DNA of 64,000 nucleotides, taken from NCBI GenBank assembly GCA_001818315.1, contig MHKF01000012.1, forward strand, positions 128,080 to 192,079, given 5' to 3'. This document shows, piece after piece, positions 4,549 through 63,037 of the stretch. Positions within the stretch are counted from its first letter, which is position 1. Every line of letters starts with the position of its first letter. Origin of the DNA: Candidatus Kerfeldbacteria bacterium RIFCSPLOWO2_02_FULL_42_19. Lineage in GTDB: Bacteria > Patescibacteriota > Patescibacteriia > HO2-48-17. A program made the position numbers and the translations under genes. Below the pieces are notes generated by a model that worked only from the letters and a program-made list of their open reading frames with translations, was not told the origin of the DNA and did not search any database.

Positions 4549-4566
4549 TTCTGTTGCTCTTTTTAT

Positions 4567-4746
4567 CTGCATTTAAGATAAGGCAGGGGAAGGATATATT
4601 TTTTCAAATGTGTTGTGATAAGTACTTCATCAAATAGAGAGGAAAGTGTGCACTATAGTAACTCTTTCAAATACAGATCGTTCATGTTTGGATATCACAG
4701 CTTTTGAAAAATTTATCCTTCCCCTGCCTTATCTTAAAGTTGCAGT
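4567..4746. repeat. Family-A element, copy 1: a ~110-nt conserved core flanked by a locus-specific perfect ~30-bp inverted repeat
   Basis: Arms ctgcatttaagataaggcaggggaaggata / tatccttcccctgccttatcttaaagttgcag; the core is shared with 24925-25090 (ttttttcaaatgYgttgtgat…atagagaggaaagtgtg…ttcatgtttggatatcacagcWtttgaaaaa). Confidence 0.6.
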
Positions 4747-4854
4747 ATTACAATGTGTTTACTTATCCACAGACGGCGCTCTATAGACAACTGTCACTGT
4801 CGACGCTATAGTGAAAAGATGAGCGTTCTCTCGTTTATTTCTTAACGAGATTTT

Positions 4855-6569: not shown

Positions 6570-7101
6570 AGGTTTGACTCTTTAAGAGAATTATTTGTGA
6601 AATTATGGCTCTTTATGGATAAGATGGAAGAGTTTTTTTATTGAAAGGAGGAATGTTTCGGATTGAGCCCCTCAAAAAGGCCCGATATATGGATTATTTC
6701 CTAAAGCAGAAGTTTTCGCAAGGGGCTAAAATATAACAACCCCGAAAAGCAAGTATTGCTTCTGGGGTTGTTCAAAAGGTCTCTATTTTTAATCCCTCTC
6801 CAAAATTTTCTGCTCAGCCTTGTGCGGCGGCAGAGTGGAGGGTCACAATCTTAGAGAGGGAATTGTACATGAAGGAAAGGTGGGATTTGAGTCGGCGGGA
6901 ATCTATATGAACTCTGCGTTTGCAAATTTTACAAACACAGAGAGAAAGTTTTAAGGTTGAGGTTTGACTTTGAGCCTTTCGAACGAGGACTCCGAAATCT
7001 CATCGCGTCGTACGCAGTAACTTCTTATGCAAGAAGTCCTTCGCTATACGAACTCCGATAAGAGTCGCGCCTAGTCGGGTACTCAAAATCATTCTCAAAT
7101 C

Positions 7102-9945
7102 CTATGACGCTACATTTGTTGCACTGCGGCGATTTTTGAGAGAAGCGCAGTTTCCTGTCTCTGGGTCGACGTGCCTTTTTACTGCAGGCATTTCATGGAA
7201 AGGCACTCGTTCGCCGCAGTGTGGACAGAGGAATGTTTCTTCCCTGGTGCCGTTTTCGGCCGAGAAGAATCTGATTTGCTGCGGTCCACTCTGCAGGTGG
7301 ATGACCTCCACGTGAGTGTTTTCTTTCGGGGATTCGCCGAGTCGCACACCAAGTGTGGGCTCTTCCGCCTTGCCGTCGCGGTTGAAGGCAGCCTGTCGTC
7401 GCTCCCAGAAGTTGATTGCGGTGCGGGCATCTTTTTCCGGTTTCTTCGAACTCTCCTCACCGCCTTCTTTGGAGTCGTTCGCTATCTCTGCGCCGAGTTC
7501 CTGTACTTCGTGGAAGAATTCAGGGAGATCCGCGACGTGATCTTCGGCATCTTCTGGTGGAAGAGGAGGCGCTATCTCCTGATGCGCAGCTGTTGGGACC
7601 GCAGTCTCGATTGTCGCATTCCGAGCGAGAGCGGCGGTGAGTTCTTCGTAGTCACACAGCGCTTTTCTGAGTTTCTTTTCGGTTTCTTCGACTCGCTGCG
7701 TGAGTTCACTGATTGTCTTTTCTGATGTGACAAGCGTTTCGAGTCTGCCTTGTTCGGCAGCAGCAACTTTTTCTTCAGCACTTTTCGCGCGAATTTCTGC
7801 CACCGCTTCCTGTGATTTAGCTACTTCGGCGCGTCTTTCGGCAGTGATTTTTTTGGTATTCGCTTGCCGAAGCTCCTCGATGAGTCGAAGGTTCTCGTCA
7901 AGAAGCGCGTTCTTATTTGCTTCAGCATTTTGCGCCTGAATGCGGTAGAAGCCCGGGTTCGTGCACCCTTCGACGTCATTATTCTGTGACTCCATCTTAA
8001 TGATGTCGCTGAGTATCGGGGCCTCTTGTTTGAGCGCATCACGTTCGTTGCTGAGATTCGTATTTTTTCTACGAGCCTCATTCAAATCAACAATGATTTT
8101 CGTGCGCTCACGTTCGCTTGCTTGCAGATCCGCTTCGAGTTTTCGCTTTGTTTCTTGGAGTTGCTCGACCTTCTCTACAAGTATTCGAGTCTCGTGACCC
8201 GTGTCTCTCGTCATGTCTCCGATTTTCTTCTGAAGACTCTCTCGTGTTTTTTCCGACTTCTCGTAGTTTTTTTCGAGACGTCGGATTTTCTCTTGCTGAG
8301 TTTTGACAGTATCAGTATCGTCATCACTTGCAAACTGTCTCTTCAACACGAAGAGAATAATGAGTAGGAACGGGAGACACGCGAACATCAGAGGCGCGCG
8401 GCGCATGAAGACGTTCTGCGCGATCCAGTTATTGAGGGGATCAATGACTGGAATCCGGGTGGGATCTGCGGCAGGTTCGGCTGGCGGTGCGTCGACGGTT
8501 GGTGTTTCGGAGACGACGTTGCCGAACGTATTGGATTGCGGCAGAGTGTCATCTCGCTGAGGTTGCTGACCCTGTCCATCTTGCGAAGGCGTAGAGAGAC
8601 ACGCTGTCGAAGCTTTTGTTAGCTTTTCCTGCGTTTCGCTGAGTTTTTTCCGGAGCTTTTGAAGATCCTCCTCTGTTGCCTGCAATTTTTTGAGGGCATC
8701 ATCGAGGTCCTCCTTGAGGTTCTGCTTTTCTGTATGTAACGCAGCGGCGTTTTGACTCACCTCTTCCGATGTCGTATGCGTTTTTTTGAGGTATTTTACT
8801 TCATTACCCGGGTGGAGCGTTGCTTTTTTTACTCCTTCTTCTTCCACCCACATAGGACCGTTGAGCATCTCTAATTGCGCTTGATACTCACCCGAGGTAA
8901 ATTCCCCGGGATCATCTGACAGTCGTTGCGCGATGGACCAATACCCATCATTCGGTTCGACTGTCGTAGTATCGGTCAACTCCGTGGTCTCAAGATAGGC
9001 TAGGAGCGCTTTTAAAAATTTTTCCGATTGCTCCGCGTTTTCTTTTTCACTAAAGAAGTCGCGTCGCAGTTTGTCACCGCCATCTTGATCATCCTCCTTT
9101 ATAATGACGGTGCCAGTCTGAAAGCTGATTGTCACGGTCCCCATTGCAAACACTTTTCCGTTATCCCGAGCGATCTTGCTTTCGCTTTCGGGAGCTGTCG
9201 CAATGAAGTCTGCCTTGAGTTTGTTGACGATGTTCTCGGGCAGCCGGAACACGATTGTTCTTGATAACGTTCCGGTTTGCTGTACTTGCGCGCTGACCTC
9301 CTGTGTTTGTGGTGTTTCGGTTTTGATTGTTCTGTCTGTTTTCCTATCTTCAGGAGAGCCGAAACTTCCAATGCCAGGTGTGCCGTCGACTGATTTTTCC
9401 TTCTTTTCGGCATCGGTGGCGGGTTTTGCCTTGGCGTCAATGGGATCGCCTCCAACGCCTCTGTGTGCTGCAATACTGCGCGGCACTACCTTGAGTGTTT
9501 TTCGTCCCGCGATGATCTCTTGCTGTTTCTTCGGATCACGTCTTGCTACATTCGCGTTTTGAGCGAGTTCGGCAAGAGCGATTCTCAGATCTTGGCCGCT
9601 TCCGGAGACACTTGCGAACAAATTCTTACTCGCTCCAGTCTCTATGACTTCGTACCAGAGCAGAGTGTTTTCCTGTATTGCTCCATCGAAGACTTCGATG
9701 AGCAATTTGGGAATCTTGATCCCCGGAATGAAGATCTCCTGTGAGGAACACTGCATTTGTGTTCCTGCGGTGACTGCCTTCCCGTCTGGTGAACTGATTT
9801 TCACTACGAGATTCCGCAGTTCCGGTTCATTAGAGAGAATCCAACATTCTTGTTCTGCCCGCTCTTGATCCGCTGCGATTGCATCCACGATATTCAGAGC
9901 GAAAAAAACGCTCAACATCACGATCGTTGTTGTCATCAGTTTCAT
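7102..9945 (-). CDS. large signal-peptide/TM coiled-coil protein with a C-terminal zinc ribbon (hypothetical)
   Basis: 947 aa; N-terminal signal peptide; central TM (MFACLPFLLIILFVLK); long heptad-rich E/K/Q region; C-terminal CPHCG…C; GC content clearly higher than the neighbouring genes. Confidence 0.6.
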   Translation of the reverse strand: MKLMTTTIVMLSVFFALNIVDAIAADQERAEQECWILSNEPELRNLVVKISSPDGKAVTAGTQMQCSSQEIFIPGIKIPKLLIEVFDGAIQENTLLWYEVIETGASKNLFASVSGSGQDLRIALAELAQNANVARRDPKKQQEIIAGRKTLKVVPRSIAAHRGVGGDPIDAKAKPATDAEKKEKSVDGTPGIGSFGSPEDRKTDRTIKTETPQTQEVSAQVQQTGTLSRTIVFRLPENIVNKLKADFIATAPESESKIARDNGKVFAMGTVTISFQTGTVIIKEDDQDGGDKLRRDFFSEKENAEQSEKFLKALLAYLETTELTDTTTVEPNDGYWSIAQRLSDDPGEFTSGEYQAQLEMLNGPMWVEEEGVKKATLHPGNEVKYLKKTHTTSEEVSQNAAALHTEKQNLKEDLDDALKKLQATEEDLQKLRKKLSETQEKLTKASTACLSTPSQDGQGQQPQRDDTLPQSNTFGNVVSETPTVDAPPAEPAADPTRIPVIDPLNNWIAQNVFMRRAPLMFACLPFLLIILFVLKRQFASDDDTDTVKTQQEKIRRLEKNYEKSEKTRESLQKKIGDMTRDTGHETRILVEKVEQLQETKRKLEADLQASERERTKIIVDLNEARRKNTNLSNERDALKQEAPILSDIIKMESQNNDVEGCTNPGFYRIQAQNAEANKNALLDENLRLIEELRQANTKKITAERRAEVAKSQEAVAEIRAKSAEEKVAAAEQGRLETLVTSEKTISELTQRVEETEKKLRKALCDYEELTAALARNATIETAVPTAAHQEIAPPLPPEDAEDHVADLPEFFHEVQELGAEIANDSKEGGEESSKKPEKDARTAINFWERRQAAFNRDGKAEEPTLGVRLGESPKENTHVEVIHLQSGPQQIRFFSAENGTREETFLCPHCGERVPFHEMPAVKRHVDPETGNCASLKNRRSATNVAS

Positions 9946-9966
9946 GTTTCTTCTCCTTGCAGTTTT

Positions 9967-10117
9967 AGTTCCTACATTACTTGCAGTCTGTAGGAACTTG
10001 GTTGAAAAATTCTAGATTCAGAATTTATTCCGATAGGCAGGGCTGGCGGTTTGTGATTTTTTTCTCACAGACTGCCGGAAAAAGGTTCAATAAAAAGCTC
10101 TTTTCTAGCAGTCTGTG
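9967..10117. promoter_or_regulatory. Divergent intergenic region (large gene <-> dnaG) containing two perfect 10-bp palindromic hairpins that share a CAGTCTGT motif
   Basis: agttcctaca…tgtaggaact (9967-9998) and cacagactgc…gcagtctgtg (10067-10117); the same half-site recurs at 27258-27298 and 29984-30029. Confidence 0.3.
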
Positions 10118-10518
10118 CACGTCCGGTTTTTCTCTTTCTTTTGAGTATTTTCTAGCGGTTGTATTGCTGTATTTTCTTTCCTTCATTTTTCAAAGAACGT
10201 CACCAAAAGCGTAGTCATAAACATTGTCTTTGTCAATGTATATTTACAGTTTTTGGAAACAATTGAGTAAATCATGTATTGAAATTTTTGTCAATTTCGC
10301 ACAAAATTGAAAAAAGCGAATAGAAAAAACTTTTGTGAGAAATATCTGAAGGATATCATGACTTTCGCTTATGTTCCTCACTGGAGCAATCCTATTCGCT
10401 TTTTTTGAAAAAGGCTACTACCCGTCGGAATCCGAATCACTTCCTGCAAGAAGAAGAATCGGACGCGTAACATTACAAAAATAGTATACTTTGCCTTTGC
10501 TTTTTCGTCAAAAGCGGG

Positions 10519-13761: not shown

Positions 13762-13830
13762 TTAAAAATTTTTTTACAAGACACTTCGTTTCACATTATA
13801 AGAAAATTTAAAAGTTTTATGAGATAATTT

Positions 13831-13922
13831 CCAAAAGAGAGGAGGGGAAAACTATAGCTTTCGAAGCACTCACAATGCACAGTGTGCTGAGAAAGTTTTG
13901 TTTTCCCCTCCTCTCTTTTGGA
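13831..13922. repeat. Family-B hairpin repeat, copy 1 (between the convergent rpoD and TrmB genes; terminator-like)
   Basis: aaaagagaggaggggaaaactatagctttcgaagcactcacaatgcacagtgtgctgagaaag…cccctcctctctttt; the core is shared with 22319-22411, 32641-32721 (opposite orientation) and 62393-62477. Confidence 0.6.
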
Positions 13923-13986
13923 AATTGCCTTCAATTCGTTGCAAATGTTGATTTTGGACACACGACACCACAAATAACATTTCCGG

Positions 13987-15429: not shown

Positions 15430-15525
15430 TACCTTGGTCTTTGAACGCCCGCCGTTTATATAAAGGGTCTGTCGCCGAATACCATTTCTGTAAACGGCGA
15501 TAGACCCATAAACGGCGATAGTAAC

Positions 15526-15566
15526 AACCCGCTATGTCCTTTGGATCTTAGCGGGTTCTTTTTTTC
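15526..15566. terminator. Rho-independent terminator (bidirectional, between the 14908 gene and the znuB 3' end)
   Basis: aacccgct-[16-nt loop]-agcgggtt followed by cttttttt. Confidence 0.6.
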
Positions 15567-15589
15567 AAAATTGAGGGTTCATCAAATAC

Positions 15590-20926: not shown

Positions 20927-22317
20927 TTTGGACTAATTTTTTACATATTTATCAGCCGCCGACGCAGAAGCAACGATGGGTGCGTAAAATCGCTAACGAA
21001 AGTTACCGCAAACTCATTCGTGGATTTTTGGATAATCCCAAAGCCAAAGTTACGATGAATGTGAATGCTGTACTTCTGGAACTTTTCGATCGATATGGAT
21101 GTCAGGATGTGATTGCCGGATTGCGTGAACTTGGCGAGCGCGGACAGATTGAATTTACGGCATCAGCAAAATATCATCCTTTTTTGCCGCTTATGCCTGA
21201 GACTGAAATTGTTCGTCAGATCGGACTGAATACGGAAACAAATCGCAAGTATTTAGGTCCGGCGTATCAACCCAAAGGTTTTTTCCCGCCTGAAATGGCA
21301 TATAATCGGCGTGTCGGTGAGATTGTGAGTAAGCTCGGTTTTCGTTGGATTATTCTTGATGAACTCGCTTCTGCGCCTGCAACAGGGACACTGTCTGCGA
21401 GCGCACTGTATGAAATTAAAGGCATCCCCGATTTTTATGTTTTTTTTCGTGATCGCGCCATGAGCTTTCGAATTCTTTCTGCACAGGTTGGCGTGAGTGT
21501 GTTTTCAAGTAACATGTTGTTGGATTTTTTAGGTGATCGTTTGAATCGTAACGAATATTTACTTACGGCAATGGACGGCGAAACATTTGGACATCATCGA
21601 CCGGGTCTTGAGATGTTATTGTTTGAGATTTACAAAGCAGAGGGCATTACTTCTCTCACGATTTCTCAGCTTTTTGAACATTTTCACGAAAAACGTGTTA
21701 TTGATCCGCGTGATTCCACGTGGGCATTGATGCGTCGGGATTTGGAACGTAATACACCTTTTTCGCGTTGGAAGAATGAACAGAACGAAATTCAAATGTG
21801 GCAATGGGAGCTTACCGATTTGGCGATTCGGAATGTGGAGCACTTTGAACGCGCTAAGCAGGTTACTGCGGCACAGCGTGCAGCGCTCGATCGCGCGCTG
21901 CACAGCGATCAATATTGGTGGGCTTCCGCTGAGCCGTGGTGGAGTATTGAAATGATCGAGGCAGGTGCAAAAGAGTTACGGGATGTTGTTTTGAGTCTGA
22001 GTGTTTCAGCTGCTACAAAGCGTAAAGCAGAAGAACTCTACAAAAATATTTTGTATCGAGCTTTTGATTGGCAGCGGTCAGGCAAAGTCGAAACGATGGC
22101 GAAAATGGCGGATGAAGATGTGACGCAGCGCATTACGACCGAGATTCCTTATATTCCGGAAGAAGAATTTAATACGATCGTTGCGAATTTGACGAAGCAA
22201 ATGAAGCAGGCTGCAGATGCTTTAGAATACGAACGCGCAGCGCAGATTCGCGAGCGCATTAGCGAGTTGAATGCAAAGAAAGACGAAATTACACAACCGA
22301 AAGAGTATCGACCGTGA
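20923..22317 (+). CDS. GH57-family protein with a C-terminal UVR (UvrB/UvrC-type) domain
   Basis: GH57 blocks as in the upstream paralog, plus a C-terminal ANLTKQMKQAADALEYERAAQIRERISEL UVR motif. Confidence 0.6.
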   Translation: MIWTNFLHIYQPPTQKQRWVRKIANESYRKLIRGFLDNPKAKVTMNVNAVLLELFDRYGCQDVIAGLRELGERGQIEFTASAKYHPFLPLMPETEIVRQIGLNTETNRKYLGPAYQPKGFFPPEMAYNRRVGEIVSKLGFRWIILDELASAPATGTLSASALYEIKGIPDFYVFFRDRAMSFRILSAQVGVSVFSSNMLLDFLGDRLNRNEYLLTAMDGETFGHHRPGLEMLLFEIYKAEGITSLTISQLFEHFHEKRVIDPRDSTWALMRRDLERNTPFSRWKNEQNEIQMWQWELTDLAIRNVEHFERAKQVTAAQRAALDRALHSDQYWWASAEPWWSIEMIEAGAKELRDVVLSLSVSAATKRKAEELYKNILYRAFDWQRSGKVETMAKMADEDVTQRITTEIPYIPEEEFNTIVANLTKQMKQAADALEYERAAQIRERISELNAKKDEITQPKEYRP

Positions 22318-22318
22318 A

Positions 22319-22411
22319 GCGAGGAGTTGAGTGTAGGGATAGTATAGCTTTCGAAGCACTAACATTGTACTGTGTGCTGAGAAAGTATATTATCCCTACA
22401 CTCAACTCCTC
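22319..22411. repeat. Family-B hairpin repeat, copy 2 (after the GH57-UVR stop)
   Basis: gaggagttgagtgtagggatagtatagctttcgaagcactaacattgtactgtgtgctgagaaagtat…atccctacactcaactcctc. Confidence 0.6.
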
Positions 22412-22488
22412 GTGCAATCGATTTGGATTATTGCAACGATGCGCCTTCTCGGTCATAATAATATCAAGATGTTCATTTGTGATTTTTA

Positions 22489-24894: not shown

Positions 24895-24924
24895 ATATTC
24901 GGGAATTTTCGTCCTGTAATTGAA

Positions 24925-25090
24925 AGAGTGAAGAACGGCGAGCATATGTTTTTTCAAATGCGTTGTGATTACCAACTTTATGAGATAGAGAGGAAAGTGT
25001 GTACGAGAGCAACTTTTTCAAACGAATATCATTCATGTTTGGATATCACAGCATTTGAAAAAACATATGCTCGCCGTTCTTCACTATTCA
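24925..25090. repeat. Family-A element, copy 2 (conserved core in a different, locus-specific perfect ~28-bp stem)
   Basis: Arms agtgaagaacggcgagcatatgtttttt / aaaaaacatatgctcgccgttcttcact; the core aligns with 4567-4746. Confidence 0.6.
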
Positions 25091-25110
25091 TATATCAAAA
25101 ATAAGGAGAT

Positions 25111-25308
25111 ATGGAATTTGCAAATCTGCGCTGTCCCTATTGCGGACATGTACAACAGGTGACGGTGCCACAAAAAAGTTGTCTTTTTTCGCATCGCTGC
25201 GCGCGATGTCATGATCTTATTACCGTACCATCGACGAGTTCGGAATGCTGTGTAATTTGCGCTTATTCCGATACGAAGTGTCCAGTGAGTCGCTCACAGA
25301 GTAAGTAA
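25111..25308 (+). CDS. small Cys-rich zinc-ribbon protein (hypothetical)
   Basis: 65 aa with CPYCG…C…C..C and a second CC..C cluster; weak support. Confidence 0.3.
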   Translation: MEFANLRCPYCGHVQQVTVPQKSCLFSHRCARCHDLITVPSTSSECCVICAYSDTKCPVSRSQSK

Positions 25309-25360
25309 GTTGGAGCCTAAACACAGCACAACCTCTTTACTTTGGTAGCTAAAGAGGTTG

Positions 25361-27184
25361 TTATGGCGAAAGATCAAGCCCCCATTGTTCGAGTATACTT
25401 TGGAGGTATTCGAGTGTCTTTGTGTCCATCTTTGGACTCATGAGTATTTTTGTTTTCCCGAGGCGCGCTAGTTGCTCAATTGTTTGTACACCCCAACGGT
25501 CTTTGAATCCTCGAATGATTTCTTTCGTGACGCCGTACTTGTTCAGACATTCGATATTTTTTTGTTTCGCCAATTCGGAAGGCCATAGTGGAATGTGCCG
25601 TGTTTCGTTTTTCCGTCTCCCTTGTTTCTTTTTTGATTCCTCCTTTGGTTTCTTGTGCTCTATCTCTTGGCTATCAGATGTTTGGTATGTCCGAACAAAC
25701 TGGGTGTTCAGGTTGAGCATCTCCGCGATCGTACTTATGGGCCATTCGAGATCATTAATAAGTCTTGCAATAATGATTTCGCGAATCATTTGCAGCTCTG
25801 GCGTGTTGCATGCGTATCGTATCGCGCGAAGACTCTGACCGAAACTCTCGCACATCTTTCGAACCAAATTTTCCCGAGCGACTTTTGCTCGGCGTGTCCA
25901 CGATATGCAACGTTGCACAGAACATTTTGGTTTCTTTTTAAAACATGCATCTTCTGGAAAAAGGTATTTTATTTTTTCCAAGATCTGTTTATTTTGACAC
26001 AGCCCAAGTACCCTTTTTTCTATTTGTCGTACTCGTTCCCGCGTGACACCGAGATATGCACCTACTTCTTCCAATGTCTCGCCGTCGCCGCCATTGAGAC
26101 AGAATCGTCTTTCAATACAAACCCGTTCTTGCTCAAAGAGATAACATGCGTCGAAAATTTCCTCGACGAGTTTTGTAAGTTTTTTATGCGTTTCTGCATC
26201 ACACAAACTTTCTTCTATCGAGCTGCCACTAGATACAAGATCACCTCTTGTCGCGCCGTGGTTTGCATCGTTTTGAAGAGATGCGTCCAGCGAGAGAGGA
26301 TGATCATAATTGCGTAATCGGTTGAATAGATCCAAAATTTTTTTCGAACTCGTATTCATGCGTGCTGCAAGTGATTCAATTGTTGGCCGTTCACCAGAAA
26401 GCATCTCTATCTGATAGGTTATTCTATTCAACCTTTGAAGCTCGACGATCAGATGGACTGGAAATATATGAGCCTCTGCAATAGCTCTCCACATCGCTTG
26501 TTTTATCCACCAGTGTGCATAGGTTGAGAAGCGGACTCCTCGCGTATAATCATAACGTTCTACGGCATGCATAAGACCGAGCGCGCCTTCCTGCAAGAGA
26601 CTGTCTTGCGCAAGCATTGGATCCCGGATTCTACCAATGATATTCATTAGATGCCCAAGCGTAGCGCCAACGAGGTTCAGATTTTGTTCCATAATTTGAT
26701 TGCGAGCGGCAAGTCTTTCCGCGGGTGTCCCTTCTCGGAATTGTTGGAAGAGTTTAAATTGGTTGCCGAGGATTTTTTGTGCTATCGCTTCTTCCTCTGG
26801 CGTTGTGGCCTTAAAGTGTGATGTCTCGTATGTGGCGGACAGATTTTTTGGACCAGTGAAATGACGACCGTCTCCTGCTGAAGTACGCAAATGCTCACAA
26901 CCGTACTCTTCGAGTGCTTGTTGGATTTCTGCGATAATATTATCCGCAGTGCCATGTGGCAGAGACCTTTGAACCCCTGCCCTTCTGATCTCTAGAAATG
27001 TTCGGCGTAGTTCCGCCTCACTTTTGAGTTTGAGTTTCGCGATTGTTGTAATGCCTGCACTGATCAGATAGAGTTTTGTGAATGGAGATATATTCAGCGC
27101 GTCTATCGATTCTCCGGTTTCTTGTTTGTTAAGGTGCTGCATGTGTCCCTCCTGTCTTTTCGTTGTGATGTATTCTGATTTCAC
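25361..27184 (-). CDS. sigma-70-family sigma factor with N- and C-terminal extensions that resemble RpoA alpha-CTD / HhH domains
   Basis: Region 2 YAHWWIKQAMWRAI; region 4 LEEVGAYLGVTRERVRQIE; N-terminal LNISPFTKLYLISAGITTIAKL and C-terminal IECLNKYGVTKE…TIEQLARLGKTKILMSPKMDTKTLEYLQSILEQWGLDL resemble the alpha-CTD pattern. Confidence 0.65.
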   Translation of the reverse strand: MKSEYITTKRQEGHMQHLNKQETGESIDALNISPFTKLYLISAGITTIAKLKLKSEAELRRTFLEIRRAGVQRSLPHGTADNIIAEIQQALEEYGCEHLRTSAGDGRHFTGPKNLSATYETSHFKATTPEEEAIAQKILGNQFKLFQQFREGTPAERLAARNQIMEQNLNLVGATLGHLMNIIGRIRDPMLAQDSLLQEGALGLMHAVERYDYTRGVRFSTYAHWWIKQAMWRAIAEAHIFPVHLIVELQRLNRITYQIEMLSGERPTIESLAARMNTSSKKILDLFNRLRNYDHPLSLDASLQNDANHGATRGDLVSSGSSIEESLCDAETHKKLTKLVEEIFDACYLFEQERVCIERRFCLNGGDGETLEEVGAYLGVTRERVRQIEKRVLGLCQNKQILEKIKYLFPEDACFKKKPKCSVQRCISWTRRAKVARENLVRKMCESFGQSLRAIRYACNTPELQMIREIIIARLINDLEWPISTIAEMLNLNTQFVRTYQTSDSQEIEHKKPKEESKKKQGRRKNETRHIPLWPSELAKQKNIECLNKYGVTKEIIRGFKDRWGVQTIEQLARLGKTKILMSPKMDTKTLEYLQSILEQWGLDLSP

Positions 27185-27257: not shown

Positions 27258-27298
27258 CAGACTGTGAAAACTTTTTGAGAGATGTTTCGCACAGTCTG
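27258..27298. terminator. hairpin cagactgtgaaaac…gtttcgcacagtctg, 12 nt after the stop of paralog A
   Basis: Inverted repeat seen directly; a homologous hairpin sits at 29984-30029. Confidence 0.4.
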
Positions 27299-29983: not shown

Positions 29984-30029
29984 AATCAGACTGCTTGAAA
30001 CGATTTTTCGCGTTTCTCACAGTCTGATT
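29984..30029. terminator. hairpin aatcagactgcttgaaacg…cgtttctcacagtctgatt, 10 nt after the stop of paralog B
   Basis: Homologous to the 27258-27298 hairpin. Confidence 0.4.
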
Positions 30030-32062: not shown

Positions 32063-32108
32063 TTGTTCATTCTTTTTGACAGATTGATGAGTCGGAGATA
32101 GTATTCCT

Positions 32109-32486
32109 TTGGGTTGTTATTGTGATCTTGTTACGACACAAGACTTTTCCCGTCACATGGAAAACAGGAGGTTAAACATGTGTCATTTTGTACAGGTACC
32201 TGTGAGTCAAAATTTTGTACTTTGGGAATTGCCGATTCAAGAACCAGATACAGAACACACGTGTTCTGGACTTGGTTTGCGGGTCACTTCTGAAGGCAAA
32301 GTCGTAGACGTCGAACACTGCTCGCGTTGTTTCCCAAACCTCACAATTGCTCCTGGCACGCAATTGTGCTTGCCGGAGAATATTCCGTCATGGAAAGAGG
32401 CAGCTCATCGGGTTGACGGTTTCAGCAGTATGGTCACCCCGACCGAGGTTCTCGGGTCTCTCTTGCAATCCCGAAGTGCTGCGTGA
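32109..32486 (+). CDS. hypothetical small protein (weak)
   Basis: ORF only, several Cys; an alternative start at 32179 is possible. Confidence 0.2.
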   Translation: MGCYCDLVTTQDFSRHMENRRLNMCHFVQVPVSQNFVLWELPIQEPDTEHTCSGLGLRVTSEGKVVDVEHCSRCFPNLTIAPGTQLCLPENIPSWKEAAHRVDGFSSMVTPTEVLGSLLQSRSAA

Positions 32487-32640
32487 GATCGATCGTTTGA
32501 CTCGTTTTTTTTCTCTTTCTGTGAGCAGGTTTTGCCTGCTCCGCTTCTTGAGATTGTGATGTTCGCTCTCGTAGTTTCAAGAAGCTGAGTACTTGTATCG
32601 GGACTGTCGCCGAATGTTATTTTTTGTTCAATACACGAAA

Positions 32641-32721
32641 CAAAAGAGGAGGATGACTCTCCTTTCTCAGCACACTGTGCAGTGTCAGTGCTTCGAAAGC
32701 AAGAGTCATCCTCTTCTTTTG
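32641..32721. repeat. Family-B hairpin repeat, copy 3 (inverted orientation)
   Basis: aaaagaggaggatgactctcctttctcagcacactgtgcagtgtcagtgcttcgaaagcaagagtcatcctcttctttt. Confidence 0.6.
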
Positions 32722-32895
32722 TTTTGCACATTGCATAAGAAAACGGTATTCGTGGACAGTCCCATATCGCGTCGTTATTTTCTTTTTGAGTAGAATGTTT
32801 TATATTTTAAGCAGTTGACTATTTTTATCTGTTGTTTTTTTATTCTCGGTGTGAAGAACAAAATATCCATACATCGTAGGTTTTGTTTCGCGAGC

Positions 32896-35679: not shown

Positions 35680-36810
35680 ATGCTCGGAGCTTTTCCCTCA
35701 CAAATGATTGAAAAACTTTTTACTGCCGGTCATATTCATGGAGCTGCTTTGCAGAATATACAACCTTCTTCGCTTGATCTTACACTTAGCGAGGAACTTT
35801 ATCGCGTGGAAGGCGTTTTTTTGCCACAGCGCGGAGAGCACGTACGTGATTTGATTGACATGTTTCACGCGCAGTCTGTAACTTTTGCTGAACCGCTTCA
35901 ATGTCACGGAGTGTATCTGTGTCGTCTGAATGAGCGTTTAGTGCTACCCGAGAGCGTCTATGCGTATGCGAATAACAAGTCGTCTACCGGTAGGATTAAT
36001 TTGCAGGTGCGTCTGCTTTGCGATGGCGTTCCGAAGTTTGATCAGATTCCCAAAAGCTACTGTGGCGAGTTGTGGATTCTTGTTGCGCCGCATTCATTTA
36101 GTATTGCTTTGCAACCAGGACAGTCGCTCAATCAGATGCGTTTTTTCAACGCGGATACGCGGCTTTCGGAAGAAGAACATCGCGCGCTCTATAGTTTTCA
36201 ACCGCTTTTGTATCAATTTGATGGAAAGTCATTCCCTGCAGCCGAAGTACTGTTTGATAAAGGTGGCGGTATCACGATGACGATTGATTTTGATCAGGAT
36301 ATTATTGGGTATGTTGCATTTCCGAATTCCGCAAAAGTTTTGGACTATGCGCGAAGGGATTATAAACCCGAAGATTTTTTTGAGCCTATTTGTCGACTGA
36401 AAAAGAATCAGTTAGTATTGAATAGAGAGGGATTTTACATTTTTTCCACGAAGGAATACATCGCTGTGCCGCCGGAATTTTCGGTCGAGATGATTGCGTA
36501 TGATCCAACCAAAGGCGAGTTCCGTACGCACTATGCTGGATTTTTTGATCCCGGCTGGGGTTTTGGAGCGCGCGGCGAACTGAAAGGTACGCCGGCGGTA
36601 CTCGAAGTGTACCCGCACGATCATAACTTTATCTTCCGTGATGGACAGCCGATTTGCAAAATGGTCTACGAGCGACTTGCGACGTTTCCAGATCGTATCT
36701 ACGGCGTAGGCGACCTCGGTTCACATTATCAGCATCAGCGCGGCCCGTGCCTTTCCAAACATTTTGTGCAGCACGCAAAAGTAGCTGCGAGTGTTTTGAG
36801 TCAAATATAA
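35680..36810 (+). CDS. dCTP deaminase-like protein, long tandem-domain form (dUTPase superfamily)
   Basis: N-terminal IQPSSLDLTLSEELYRV (cf. Dcd VQPASVDLRLG), SSTGRINLQV (GRSS.ARLG-like), ALQPGQSLNQMRFF; the second half carries THYAGFFDPGW (a DPGW motif). Confidence 0.5.
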   Translation: MLGAFPSQMIEKLFTAGHIHGAALQNIQPSSLDLTLSEELYRVEGVFLPQRGEHVRDLIDMFHAQSVTFAEPLQCHGVYLCRLNERLVLPESVYAYANNKSSTGRINLQVRLLCDGVPKFDQIPKSYCGELWILVAPHSFSIALQPGQSLNQMRFFNADTRLSEEEHRALYSFQPLLYQFDGKSFPAAEVLFDKGGGITMTIDFDQDIIGYVAFPNSAKVLDYARRDYKPEDFFEPICRLKKNQLVLNREGFYIFSTKEYIAVPPEFSVEMIAYDPTKGEFRTHYAGFFDPGWGFGARGELKGTPAVLEVYPHDHNFIFRDGQPICKMVYERLATFPDRIYGVGDLGSHYQHQRGPCLSKHFVQHAKVAASVLSQI

Positions 36811-36975
36811 TTTTGTTGCAGTGAGAGGGTATATTGCTGGGCGACTCTTTTTGCGAGCGGGTACGGTTCGAGCGAAATGCAATGGAGCGAGAGAGCGAAC
36901 AAAAAGTGTCAGTGAGTCCACACGCTGGGTGGACGAACGGCACAGCAATATACCCTCTCACTGCAACAAAATTTT
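36809..36975. repeat. ~165-bp element: a perfect 31-bp inverted repeat flanking a ~100-nt core, between the dcd-like and thyA-like genes
   Basis: aattttgttgcagtgagagggtatattgctg … cagcaatataccctctcactgcaacaaaatttt; the core contains gagagagcgaacaaaaagtgtcagtga, which resembles the Family-A core block agagaggaaagtgtg. Confidence 0.5.
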
Positions 36976-36987
36976 TTACCAAACTTC

Positions 36988-38517
36988 ATGACCCACACTA
37001 TGCCTGCAAAAGATTTTCCAAAAGAATGGCCGATCTATTTTAAAGACAATATTATCGTTGGAAATCTTCAGAATTCTGTTGGAATTGCCTGTCTTTGGAC
37101 GCCGAAAGTCATGTTCGCACGAAAGTTAAACGCCGCAAGTTACTGCGTTTTGAGTCAGTTGTATTCGAACGACGGCATTAATCCAATTTTGCGCAATGTT
37201 TTAGCTCGGCCGCAAATTCATACGATTGTTATTTGCGGGCAGGATAAAATTGGTTCAGCCGATGCGCTGACAAAGCTTTGCGTTAGCGGTATTGATGAGA
37301 AATACAAGATAATCGGTAAACTCGAGGCAAAGGTGGATAAGGAGATTCCGCGCGAGGCCGTGGAACTTTTTCGTAGGAACGTAAAGATTGTGGATATGCG
37401 TGGCGTGCTCGATGCGGCGAAAATTCAACAAGCCGTGCGCGAACACGCAGCGCCGAACACACCGTGGGCAGCGCCGCAACTTTTTCCTGAACCAGAACTT
37501 TCAACCGAACGTTTTCCGATCGATCCTCACGGAGTCAAGATTCGTGAGAAGTATGTCGCGCAAGCGTGGCTTCGGGTGCTGTATTATATTATGCGCTTCG
37601 GCGCGGAAAAACCTACGCATCACGGCACGAATCAAAAAGAACTCCTGAATATGATGACGATTATCACTGACGAAGATCCCGAAAATATCCATTGGGCAGA
37701 TTGGTTCAATTTTACACGCGAGCACTTTGAAGGGTATAAGCTACAAGTCATGAGTGCGGAATCGATTCCTAGTCTGGAGTATACGTACGGCATGCGATTG
37801 CGGAATCACGATGGCGTGAATCAGATTGAGACGCTTATTGCAAAAATTCGAGAGGAATATTTTTCCCGACGCGCTGTTGCTTTTACGTGGAATGTCGCTC
37901 AGGATAACGTGAGTCAGCATCCGCCGTGCCTTGATCTCGTACAGGTGATTGTGCAGGACGATACGCTTCACATGACGTGTTACTTTCGTTCGAATGACAT
38001 GTTCCGCGCATGGCCGGAAAATGCGTTGGCCTTGCGCACGATGCACAAGGAGATTGCCGACGGAGTGGAATTGCCGATGGGCGAAATGTGTATTATTTCT
38101 CACAGCGCTCATGTGTACGAAGAAAACTATAATGAAGTGAAGGAGCTTTTGAAAAATTATTATGCGAAAGAGGTTGTTTTTTGCCGTTTTGATCCGCGTG
38201 GCAATTTTACGATTCACGTGAATCGCGAAAAGCGTCAGTTAGAAATGATCATGATGACGCCGAAAGGTGAGAAGATTGTCAAATACGAAGCACCCGATGC
38301 GTTCCGTATGATGCAAAAATTGGTCGCTGATGAAGCAGTTAGCGAGATTGGGCACGCGTTAGATTTGGGTGAGGAGCTCATGGAAGCAGAAATTTGTTTG
38401 CGTACAGGCCTTGAATATCGGCAGGATATCACAGGACGTACGCAATTTTTAAAGGAACTTGATCAGCTTTTGGCAGCACGCAGGCAAGAGGAACGAATCT
38501 TCGCGCGTTCAAGATGA
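36988..38517 (+). CDS. thymidylate synthase (ThyA-fold) homolog with a ~170-aa N-terminal extension
   Basis: RRAVAFTWNVAQD…HPPCLDLVQVIVQD…CYFRSNDMFRAWPENALALRTMHKEIA…ISHSAHVYEENYNE parallels the ThyA blocks R..WNP.D…PPCH…QF.V…YQRS.D…PFNIASYALL…GD.HIY.NH, including the catalytic Cys. Confidence 0.55.
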   Translation: MTHTMPAKDFPKEWPIYFKDNIIVGNLQNSVGIACLWTPKVMFARKLNAASYCVLSQLYSNDGINPILRNVLARPQIHTIVICGQDKIGSADALTKLCVSGIDEKYKIIGKLEAKVDKEIPREAVELFRRNVKIVDMRGVLDAAKIQQAVREHAAPNTPWAAPQLFPEPELSTERFPIDPHGVKIREKYVAQAWLRVLYYIMRFGAEKPTHHGTNQKELLNMMTIITDEDPENIHWADWFNFTREHFEGYKLQVMSAESIPSLEYTYGMRLRNHDGVNQIETLIAKIREEYFSRRAVAFTWNVAQDNVSQHPPCLDLVQVIVQDDTLHMTCYFRSNDMFRAWPENALALRTMHKEIADGVELPMGEMCIISHSAHVYEENYNEVKELLKNYYAKEVVFCRFDPRGNFTIHVNREKRQLEMIMMTPKGEKIVKYEAPDAFRMMQKLVADEAVSEIGHALDLGEELMEAEICLRTGLEYRQDITGRTQFLKELDQLLAARRQEERIFARSR

Positions 38518-62353: not shown

Positions 62354-62392
62354 TGGAGCTGCCGTTGAATCCCGTTTCTTGTACAATGTGCA

Positions 62393-62477
62393 AAGCAAAA
62401 GAGGAGGAAGGCGAGAGCTTCCGAAGCACTGACAGTGCACAGTGTGCTTCGGAAGCTCTCGCCTTCCTCCTCTTTTG
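62393..62477. repeat. Family-B hairpin repeat, copy 4 (between convergent genes)
   Basis: aaaagaggaggaaggcgagagcttccgaagcactgacagtgcacagtgtgcttcggaagctctcgccttcctcctcttttg. Confidence 0.6.
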
Positions 62478-62665
62478 TCTATAATCACAATGTATTTTTC
62501 ACAGGCGGAAGCGTATTCAGCTGCAGTCCTTTAATAATCCGAAGCTTTGAGTTTACCTATCACAAATAAAAGCGCATCGAATCGGATCGGTGCATATACC
62601 CATAACTGTCCACAATCCTGCATATAGGCTAAAACTTGATTTTTCCCTGCGCTCTTGGCGCAGGG

Positions 62666-63037
62666 TCATTCATTGACAATGACACTCATGAGGAGTACGA
62701 CTGCTGCAGTGATTTTTGATTGAGTCAAAGCTCTACGAAGCCAGTACCACAAGGTTTGCCAAAGGCGACGACATTCACGGGTAATTGTCTTTATAAAGGC
62801 AATCCACAGTAGTCCAAAGATGCTATAGACAACTGTCGCTTTAAACTGTCCTATCAATCCCAGTAATAATCCAATATTTCCTAAGATACCCAGACCAATA
62901 AGATACGCTACACTCACAATGACTGCGTAGTGGTGCTCAAAGCGCAACCGACGCAATAACGACATTCCCATGCCGATAGCGAGGCTACTGAAAAAGAATG
63001 CTAGTAAAGTATTAGAAACGATGGAAATGATACTCAT
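62666..63037 (-). pseudogene. truncated N-terminal fragment (123 aa) of a GT-C-like membrane-protein paralog
   Basis: LRRLRFEHHYAVIVSVAYLIGLGILGNIGLLLGLIGQF parallels LRKLSWQANDAVSISIAYLLGFAVLAYSLVLLGLIKLF at the N-terminus of the 60413 gene; a stop follows after 123 aa. Confidence 0.4.

Follow-up and report, generated by a model that had tools for sequence, protein, structure and literature searches.

A 947-residue orphan protein from a Candidatus Kerfeldbacteria genome with a predicted single-pass topology and coiled coils on both membrane faces

A singleton orphan protein was analysed in a stretch of 64,000 nt from Candidatus Kerfeldbacteria bacterium RIFCSPLOWO2_02_FULL_42_19 (contig MHKF01000012.1, positions 128,080 to 192,079), hereafter the window, whose own numbering is used for all coordinates. 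The protein is encoded by a complete open reading frame (ORF) with an ATG start (7102..9945, minus strand, 947 aa plus stop), and its neighbours are the genes of an AhpF/TrxR-like reductase, a DsbD-like protein, PGI/PMI, a ROK kinase, a peroxiredoxin (Prx), an Fe/Mn superoxide dismutase (SOD), DnaG and RpoD. This ORF is a genuine gene. An AAGGAG Shine-Dalgarno sequence (9953..9958, minus strand), read directly, sits 7 nt before the ATG at 9945. The public gene call (P0001, 944 aa) begins at M4, the second Met, and is identical from residue 4 onwards; the longer MKLMTTT start is favoured, as the spacing of the ribosome-binding site fits it. Moreover, the identical sequence was found in two independent ENA assemblies, whose contigs show 2-3 base differences to the window in 15-19 kb, and a JGI contig matched the 3′ end of the adjacent dnaG at 100%. 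The GC content of the codon positions follows the pattern GC1>GC3>GC2, resembling that of native genes.

The Kyte-Doolittle hydropathy profile contained two hydrophobic segments only, at residues 1-25 and 517-536. The former (9871..9945, minus strand, as for all parts of the protein) is signal-peptide-like and consists of MK, an 18-residue hydrophobic core and AIA/AD, as judged by eye with the −3/−1 rule, while the latter (8338..8397) is the single transmembrane (TM) helix APLMFACLPFLLIILFVLKR, whose hydrophobic peak includes MFACLPFLLIILFVLK, the segment that an earlier note on this DNA had named as TM. Given a secretory N-terminus and one TM helix, the predicted topology shows residues 26-516 facing outward and residues 537-947 in the cytoplasm. 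If uncleaved, residues 1-25 would form a first TM helix, leaving the sidedness of the remaining protein unchanged. As regards a type-I bitopic protein, both the hydropathy and the AXA motif fit and the Cys/His cluster described below falls on the predicted cytoplasmic side, the charges flanking the TM helix being symmetric (RR / KR). The layout of the earlier note, in which a signal-peptide-like N-terminus was followed by an ectodomain and one TM segment, was thus borne out by hydropathy, with an ectodomain of ~490 aa for the ~480 aa given there.

The predicted ectodomain starts with an acidic N-terminal region (residues 26-135, 9541..9870) containing Cys34 and Cys66, for which neither a family nor a fold match was found in the Pfam segment search, the PDB sequence searches or the single-sequence model. 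It continues with a basic linker rich in K, P, T and E (residues 136-225, 9271..9540), with no secondary structure predicted, and with a second region of mixed alpha/beta prediction at low confidence (residues 226-393, 8767..9270), where a weak LysM-like half-motif (TVEPNDGYWSIAQRL) occupies residues 328-342. An extracytoplasmic coiled-coil helix (residues 394-446, 8608..8766), with a predicted local distance difference test (pLDDT) score of 62-74, and an acidic membrane-proximal stalk with 14% proline (residues 447-516, 8398..8607) then lead to the TM helix. On the cytoplasmic side, the prediction gives a helical rod (residues 547-776, 7618..8307) made of helices 547-654, 664-739 and 742-776 and broken at residues 655-663 (NNDVEGCTN), followed by an acidic proline-containing linker with two short predicted helices (residues 777-860, 7366..7617) and by a small beta-rich C-terminal region with the Cys/His motif (residues 861-947, 7105..7365). 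The long helices, namely 394-446 and those of the rod, were predicted with moderate confidence by the single-sequence AlphaFold model, and a crude heptad score exceeded the 99th percentile of shuffles at residues 386-452, 551-581 and 735-778. Hence, long helices with a heptad signal are present where a cytoplasmic coiled coil rich in E, K and Q had been described, although the rod spans ~230 aa and not ~350 aa, and the coiled coil at residues 394-446 is an extra one on the extracytoplasmic side that was missing from that layout. Furthermore, the protein had no catalytic, transport or known binding domain in the libraries searched, no internal repeat and no paralogue in the window.

The C-terminal residues read F-L-C907-P-H-C910-G-...-F916-H917-...-V922-K-R-H925-...-C933, which gives the motif F-x-C907-x2-C910-x5-F-x5-V-x2-H925-x7-C933, with H909 and H917 in addition. 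A zinc ribbon, as had been proposed for this end of the protein, has two CxxC (or CxxH) knuckles on two beta-hairpins, which provide four ligands. The protein shares with it the CxxC knuckle near the C-terminus (C907/C910), but the second knuckle is absent and the remaining candidate ligands are the isolated H917, H925 and C933, so that a zinc ribbon was not demonstrated because only one CxxC knuckle is present. On the other hand, the region looks like a C2H2/C2HC finger more than a zinc ribbon, to judge from models: the F-x-C-x2-C...F...V-x2-H...C spacing is that of such fingers (UBZ and the bacterial Ros/MucR), and a beta-beta-alpha arrangement is predicted around the CxxC (strands at 904-906 and 913-915, helix at 916-924), with a pLDDT of ~50 that marks a low-confidence model. 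The best Pfam match of the C-terminus was zf_UBZ (E=0.0028), whose 17.7 bits lie below the cut-off of 25.6 bits. The spacing of the ligands, C-x2-C-x14-H-x7-C (or x6-H), is non-canonical, and ROS_MUCR gave no match.

Searches for relatives returned the protein itself. Pfam (with the whole protein and four segments), NCBIfam, PADLOC and PHROGs yielded only sub-threshold coiled-coil or CxxC noise. A word-index search of a set of 5.8 billion protein clusters found only the protein itself, in contigs of the two ENA assemblies, and so did an exhaustive phmmer search of 1.84 billion representative proteins. A word-index search with 371 aa of the ectodomain gave nothing at E<=10, but this negative is unreliable and was discounted, since the self entry P0001 was missed too. 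In the PDB, no sequence matched the ectodomain, the LysM-like segment or the C-terminus at an E value under 0.02; the IMG/VR scan and a phage tblastn search contained no relative, and a literature search found nothing relevant to the protein. Chemoreceptor and sensor domains (HAMP, MCPsignal, HisKA/HATPase) had no Pfam or NCBIfam match at E<=1. In SMC, MukB and JetC-like proteins, an ABC-type ATPase head with Walker A/B motifs and a hinge flank the coiled coil; weak matches of the coiled-coil region to JetC and LmuB (E 0.01-0.6) were the only ones obtained, with no SMC_N or hinge in Pfam. The earlier remark that no family could be assigned therefore holds after exhaustive searches.

The segment TVEPNDGYWSIAQRL (residues 328-342) was considered as a possible LysM, a beta-alpha-alpha-beta profile of ~44 residues, as it resembles the beta1-alpha1 part of this domain. 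By phmmer, its best PDB matches include the LysM of a fern chitinase (5k2l, E=0.74), with LysM chains at E=0.74-0.97 over 18 residues. With hhalign, a small profile of four solved LysM sequences aligned over 15 columns at 10% probability, a score that was reached by 1 of 300 shuffles for a segment chosen post hoc. The second half of LysM does not align to the segment, and Pfam LysM (PF01476) gave no match at E<=10 when the segment was searched in isolation. A single-sequence AlphaFold2 (AF2) model of residues 318-395 showed a beta-alpha-alpha-(beta hairpin)-beta arrangement covering residues 323-386 with a pLDDT of 48.5; Foldseek with this 78-residue model against the PDB retrieved no LysM (best E=1.3), a comparison that is meaningless at such model confidence. 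With a weak, partial alignment and a silent Pfam, a LysM identity for residues 328-342 was not adopted.

The base composition of the gene was compared with that of the other genes in the window. Its GC content of 0.503 is the highest of 50 long ORFs (mean 0.426, z=2.1), so that the gene is indeed GC-rich relative to the ORFs of the window, as had been noted. In contrast, the proposed enrichment in GAG, GCG and CGC disappeared on comparison with the neighbours (0.36 vs. 0.32, 0.34 vs. 0.33 and 0.22 vs. 0.23, respectively), and the actual codon shift is one of NNC over NNT (CTC, GTC, GAC). Across positions 1-42000, third codon positions are very strongly asymmetric between the strands, plus-strand genes being rich in T3 and G3 and minus-strand genes in C3 and A3. 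Accordingly, C3/(C3+T3) amounts to 0.59 in this gene and ranges from 0.42 to 0.76 in all eight of the other minus-strand genes, vs. 0.21-0.39 in the plus-strand genes (1-42 kb). In codon usage, the gene lies closer to the minus-strand pool (distance 0.234) than any other minus-strand gene and farther from the plus-strand pool (0.406), and its GC3 has a z of 0.76 among minus-strand genes. When its amino acids were combined with minus-strand codon usage, a GC content of 0.474 was predicted, vs. 0.503 observed and 0.448 for the pool; about half of the GC excess is thus due to amino-acid composition, and the rest does not go beyond the spread of native genes. Moreover, no tRNA, integrase, mobility genes, flanking direct repeats or tandem repeats were found at the borders of the gene. 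The horizontal acquisition suggested earlier is not supported, because the NNC shift is common to every minus-strand gene in the window; these results support a native composition that arises from strand bias and amino-acid content and not from foreign origin. More generally, where third codon positions differ strongly between the replication strands, a gene can look foreign in its codon usage simply because neighbours on the opposite strand were taken as the reference. Separately, the real compositional island of the window is a surface-polysaccharide cluster at 42000-64000, whose GC content is 0.36-0.40 vs. ~0.45 elsewhere and whose dinucleotide signature is deviant. Its genes code for glycosyltransferases and methyltransferases, for an ABC exporter of the Wzm/Wzt type and for several proteins without annotation.

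The genomic context was compared with that of related genomes. Among 185,579 species genomes, the best relatives of DnaG were those of Ca. Kerfeldbacteria RIFCSPHIGHO2_12_FULL_48_17 (48%), followed by Moranbacteria and Parcubacteria, and RpoD was 78% identical to the protein of the same Kerfeldbacteria genome. Apart from the 100% identical JGI fragment, the genome and metagenome collections contained no relative whose DnaG was more than 48% identical. The backbone TrxR-DsbD-PGI-ROK-Prx...DnaG-RpoD is colinear with that of RIFCSPHIGHO2_12_FULL_48_17 and, among the loci inspected, was shared only by the Kerfeldbacteria contigs L003 and L056. The interval between Prx and DnaG holds SOD and the 947-aa protein in the window, vs. 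an RmlD-like epimerase, a secreted TIG-domain protein and a 332-aa protein in the Kerfeldbacteria contig; judging from gene order, it is a variable slot in an otherwise syntenic backbone. The 332-aa protein (L003:8539-9537, divergent from dnaG, with the same ORF in L056) resembles the 947-aa protein in its position, in its orientation away from dnaG-rpoD, and in having a signal/TM segment, a TM helix and a cytoplasmic coiled coil rich in E, K and Q. Unlike it, the 332-aa protein has an external loop of ~15 residues, with neither an ectodomain nor a Cys/His tail. The two form a positional and architectural parallel, any homology between them being putative. In addition, a 13-codon mini-ORF (MFMTTLLVTFFEK, 10180-10221, minus strand) lies in the long divergent intergenic region between dnaG and the gene and loosely echoes the N-terminus of the protein (MKLMTTTIVMLSVFF); it may be due to chance or be a remnant.

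Taken at its simplest, the protein could be a native, lineage-specific (singleton), type-I single-pass envelope protein of a bacterium of the Patescibacteria, or candidate phyla radiation (CPR), acting as a dimeric trans-membrane tether or scaffold, and this is the reading that we prefer, tentatively and at something short of an even chance. The explanation rests on anatomy because the protein has no homologues. Dimerization would occur through the coiled coils, and the role would be a passive one. The acidic two-lobed ectodomain, carried by a helical and Pro-rich stalk, would contact the wall, the surface layer or a partner cell, while the cytoplasmic rod of ~230 residues would keep a small zinc-finger-like module away from the membrane, within reach of a cytoplasmic partner, either protein or nucleic acid, that it might bind. 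Several observations weigh against this reading. The dinucleotide signature of the gene is outlying (delta* 0.111, rank 2 of 79), the deviation arising in the 3′ half that encodes the coiled coil, with a normal ectodomain-coding half. The 332-aa counterpart had no significant similarity to the protein (best BLASTP E=1.5), and the arrangement is missing from the other CPR loci inspected. The models are of low confidence outside the helices (AF2 without alignment, with a mean pLDDT of 46 for the full-length protein and 48.5 for the 78-aa segment). Furthermore, a single sequence without homologues provides no conservation, covariation or co-occurrence signal, and the function is read from the architecture alone.

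Membrane-anchored coiled-coil scaffolds of monoderm bacteria (EzrA, the DivIVA/GpsB-associated proteins and, on the outside, PcsB or EnvC) are comparable to the protein in having long membrane-attached coiled coils that serve as spacer or scaffold, with no enzymatic domains in the protein analysed here. In the present protein, such coiled coils occur on both membrane faces. The differences are that EzrA, anchored by its N-terminus, lacks an ectodomain and that hydrolase or activator domains occur in PcsB and EnvC; none of these families gave a Pfam or NCBIfam score. A protein of nearly 1,000 residues with a clear topology and no relative among ~15 billion predicted proteins indicates that much of the CPR envelope proteome lies outside known families. 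If it were a tether, it would be a candidate link between the surface and the interior of an ultra-small, probably host-attached cell. At present, this is an annotation-level result of modest interest, which relatives or expression data would raise.

Other explanations were weighed against the tether or scaffold. The roles put forward in the earlier note, those of an adhesin or of a divisome or secretion-associated protein, are guesses. The protein could be a trans-membrane signal transducer, the ectodomain sensing a ligand or contact, the coiled coil transmitting the signal and the C-terminal zinc finger acting as output to DNA or a partner. The succession of signal peptide or first TM helix, ectodomain, TM helix and long cytoplasmic helices with a central break (655-663) recalls the helical hairpin of receptors, and a Cys/His finger could bind nucleic acid; however, neither HAMP, MCPsignal, HisKA nor helix-turn-helix domains were found at E<=1, the finger match stayed below threshold (zf_UBZ, 17.7 vs. 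25.6 bits) and no partner signalling genes adjoin, so that we regard a transducer as rather unlikely. An organizer of the pole, the division site or the pilus, like FimV/HubP or EzrA, in which a degenerate LysM-like element would anchor to the wall and the coiled coil would recruit cytoplasmic machinery, was judged unlikely. FimV/HubP proteins have a periplasmic LysM, a single TM helix, an acidic cytoplasmic region and a conserved C-terminal FimV motif. As in the polar organizers FimV, HubP and TspA (Pseudomonas, Vibrio and Neisseria), a secreted N-terminal region, one TM helix and a large, acidic, helix-rich cytoplasmic part are present, and a wall-binding element in the ectodomain would be a further possible likeness, to which the alignment of TVEPNDGYWSIAQRL with the beta1-alpha1 of solved LysM domains and the beta-alpha-alpha-(hairpin)-beta prediction for residues 323-386 would contribute. 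Against this stand the silence of Pfam LysM on the isolated segment at E<=10, the post hoc hhalign match at 10% over just 15 columns, and a model at pLDDT 48 for which Foldseek retrieved no LysM from the PDB. The protein differs from these organizers in lacking a detectable LysM (by Pfam and by fold), a TPR (Pfam), any sequence similarity and the FimV C-terminal domain, of which neither Pfam nor NCBIfam found a trace, and also in its ectodomain of ~490 aa, not ~100 aa, and its CPR host. No pilus or division genes adjoin it; parB and the gene of a protein with FtsK-gamma are ~18-20 kb distant.

A recent import of a horizontally acquired surface or adhesion gene into the Prx-DnaG slot would account for the highest GC content of the 50 ORFs, for the outlying dinucleotide signature, for the ~3 GC points left over after amino-acid composition and for the different content of the slot in the closest relative. 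However, third-position composition and codon usage match those of the other minus-strand genes, the claim on GAG, GCG and CGC fails, no donor or homologue appeared in any library searched, neither integrase, tRNA nor flanking repeats were found, and it is the low-GC block at 42-64 kb that stands out in the window as the true island by composition. Moreover, turnover of the slot needs no recent transfer, because the backbone proteins of the two genomes are just 46-78% identical, and acquisition of this kind appears quite improbable. Far bolder would be to see in the protein the founding member of a group of CPR-specific trans-envelope connectors in an episymbiotic Patescibacterium, in which coiled coils on either side of the membrane would link a contact-sensing ectodomain at the cell surface, mechanically or informationally, to a zinc-finger module with the nucleoid or some cytoplasmic machine as its target, and which would have evolved in situ from a short TM and coiled-coil gene at the Kerfeldbacteria locus; we consider it very improbable. 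Finally, an ORF that is mis-called or without function, for instance through chimeric assembly or gene decay, would suit a singleton without relatives that is modelled for the most part at low confidence. Nevertheless, an open frame of 947 codons at ~50% GC far exceeds chance and comes with a canonical ribosome-binding site, a codon-position GC pattern and codon usage like those of native genes, an identical sequence in independent assemblies and a coherent domain logic (signal peptide, TM helix and Cys/His motif on the cytoplasmic side), which leaves this explanation hardly credible.

The sequences flanking the gene were also studied. A perfect 10-bp inverted repeat (AGTTCCTACA-N12-TGTAGGAACT, 9967-9998, minus strand) lies 22-53 nt upstream of the ATG, leaving the ribosome-binding site uncovered, and its 12-nt loop contains the heptamer CAGACTG, which is over-represented in the window. 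The perfect stem reported before is therefore present, but it is not distinctive, as the window contains 32 short inverted repeats in all. A repeated operator would call for further exact copies of AGTTCCTACA, of which the window has none. The folding of intergenic regions was evaluated with ViennaRNA against dinucleotide shuffles, and nine of them had z values between −7 and −13, most on both strands; the 10-bp hairpin is unremarkable because most intergenic regions are far more structured. One such region of 377 nt follows the stop codon directly (6725..7101, minus strand), with −129.3 kcal/mol and z=−7.8 (z=−3.9 on the plus strand), and is probably, on the basis of this folding, a highly structured 3′ untranslated region. 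It ends in a terminator-like hairpin (AACAACCCCAGAAGCAA-UAC-UUGCUUUUCGGGGUUGUU, then AUAUUUUAG; 6735..6772, minus strand), the likely end of the transcript. The 6725-7101 sequence is unique in the window and had no homologue among the fetched loci, and Rfam searches of the leader and trailer (at the gathering threshold and at E<=1) returned chance-level matches only.

The other structured intergenic regions were located at 4549-4854, 13762-13986, 15430-15589, 22318-22488, 24895-25360, 32063-32814, 36811-36987 and 62354-63033, while those in the 39-47 kb part were unstructured (z about 0), which suggests that long palindromic terminators or elements form a system throughout the genome. Two hairpin families were recognized. 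The first one has four copies, at 13826-13930 (plus), 22317-22420 (plus), 32628-32732 (minus) and 62385-62490 (plus), which are intergenic and usually at the 3′ ends of genes. Its core is a conserved apical part of ~40 nt (GCTTTCGAAGCACTnACAnTGnACnGTGTGCTGAGAAAG) with symmetric GA/GA internal loops, and it is flanked by perfectly paired stems of 20-34 bp whose sequence varies by copy, with compensatory changes in 17 of 32 pairs across the four copies. A covariance model of this family, which is not in Rfam, matched only contigs of this organism and none of 38 other loci, mostly CPR. The second family comprises 4564-4742 and 24925-25085, both following the 3′ ends of plus-strand genes, with a conserved core of ~120 nt (83% identity over 119 nt) and perfectly complementary stems of 25-30 bp that are unrelated between the two copies. 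In this it is opposite to miniature inverted-repeat transposable elements, where the conserved part is formed by the terminal repeats and not by the core.

The heptamer CAGACTG occurs 12 times in the window, compared to 4.8 expected, and none of 100 shuffles reached this number. Sites were found at 9984-9990, 10068-10074, 10109-10115, 27258-27298 and 29987-30026. Seven of the copies form inverted pairs in three intergenic spots on the side of minus-strand genes, upstream of the gene of the 947-aa protein, of a 607-aa sigma-like gene and of parB, and these pairs share the extended motif CAG(A/T)CTGTG(A/C)GAAA. They might serve as a common operator or represent a further family of hairpins.

As for other genes in the window, the 607-aa protein (25361-27184, minus strand), which has a CAGACTG inverted pair just upstream of its gene, contains sigma-70 regions 2 and 4 and a long extra C-terminal part, being an unusually large second sigma-like factor. 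Finally, a 509-aa fusion (36988-38517, plus strand) joins an MtrA-like N-terminal domain, a thymidylate-synthase-like domain and a PterinBD/DUF4346 domain, and adjoins a bifunctional-type dCTP deaminase (35680-36810), in an unusual arrangement for thymidylate synthesis.

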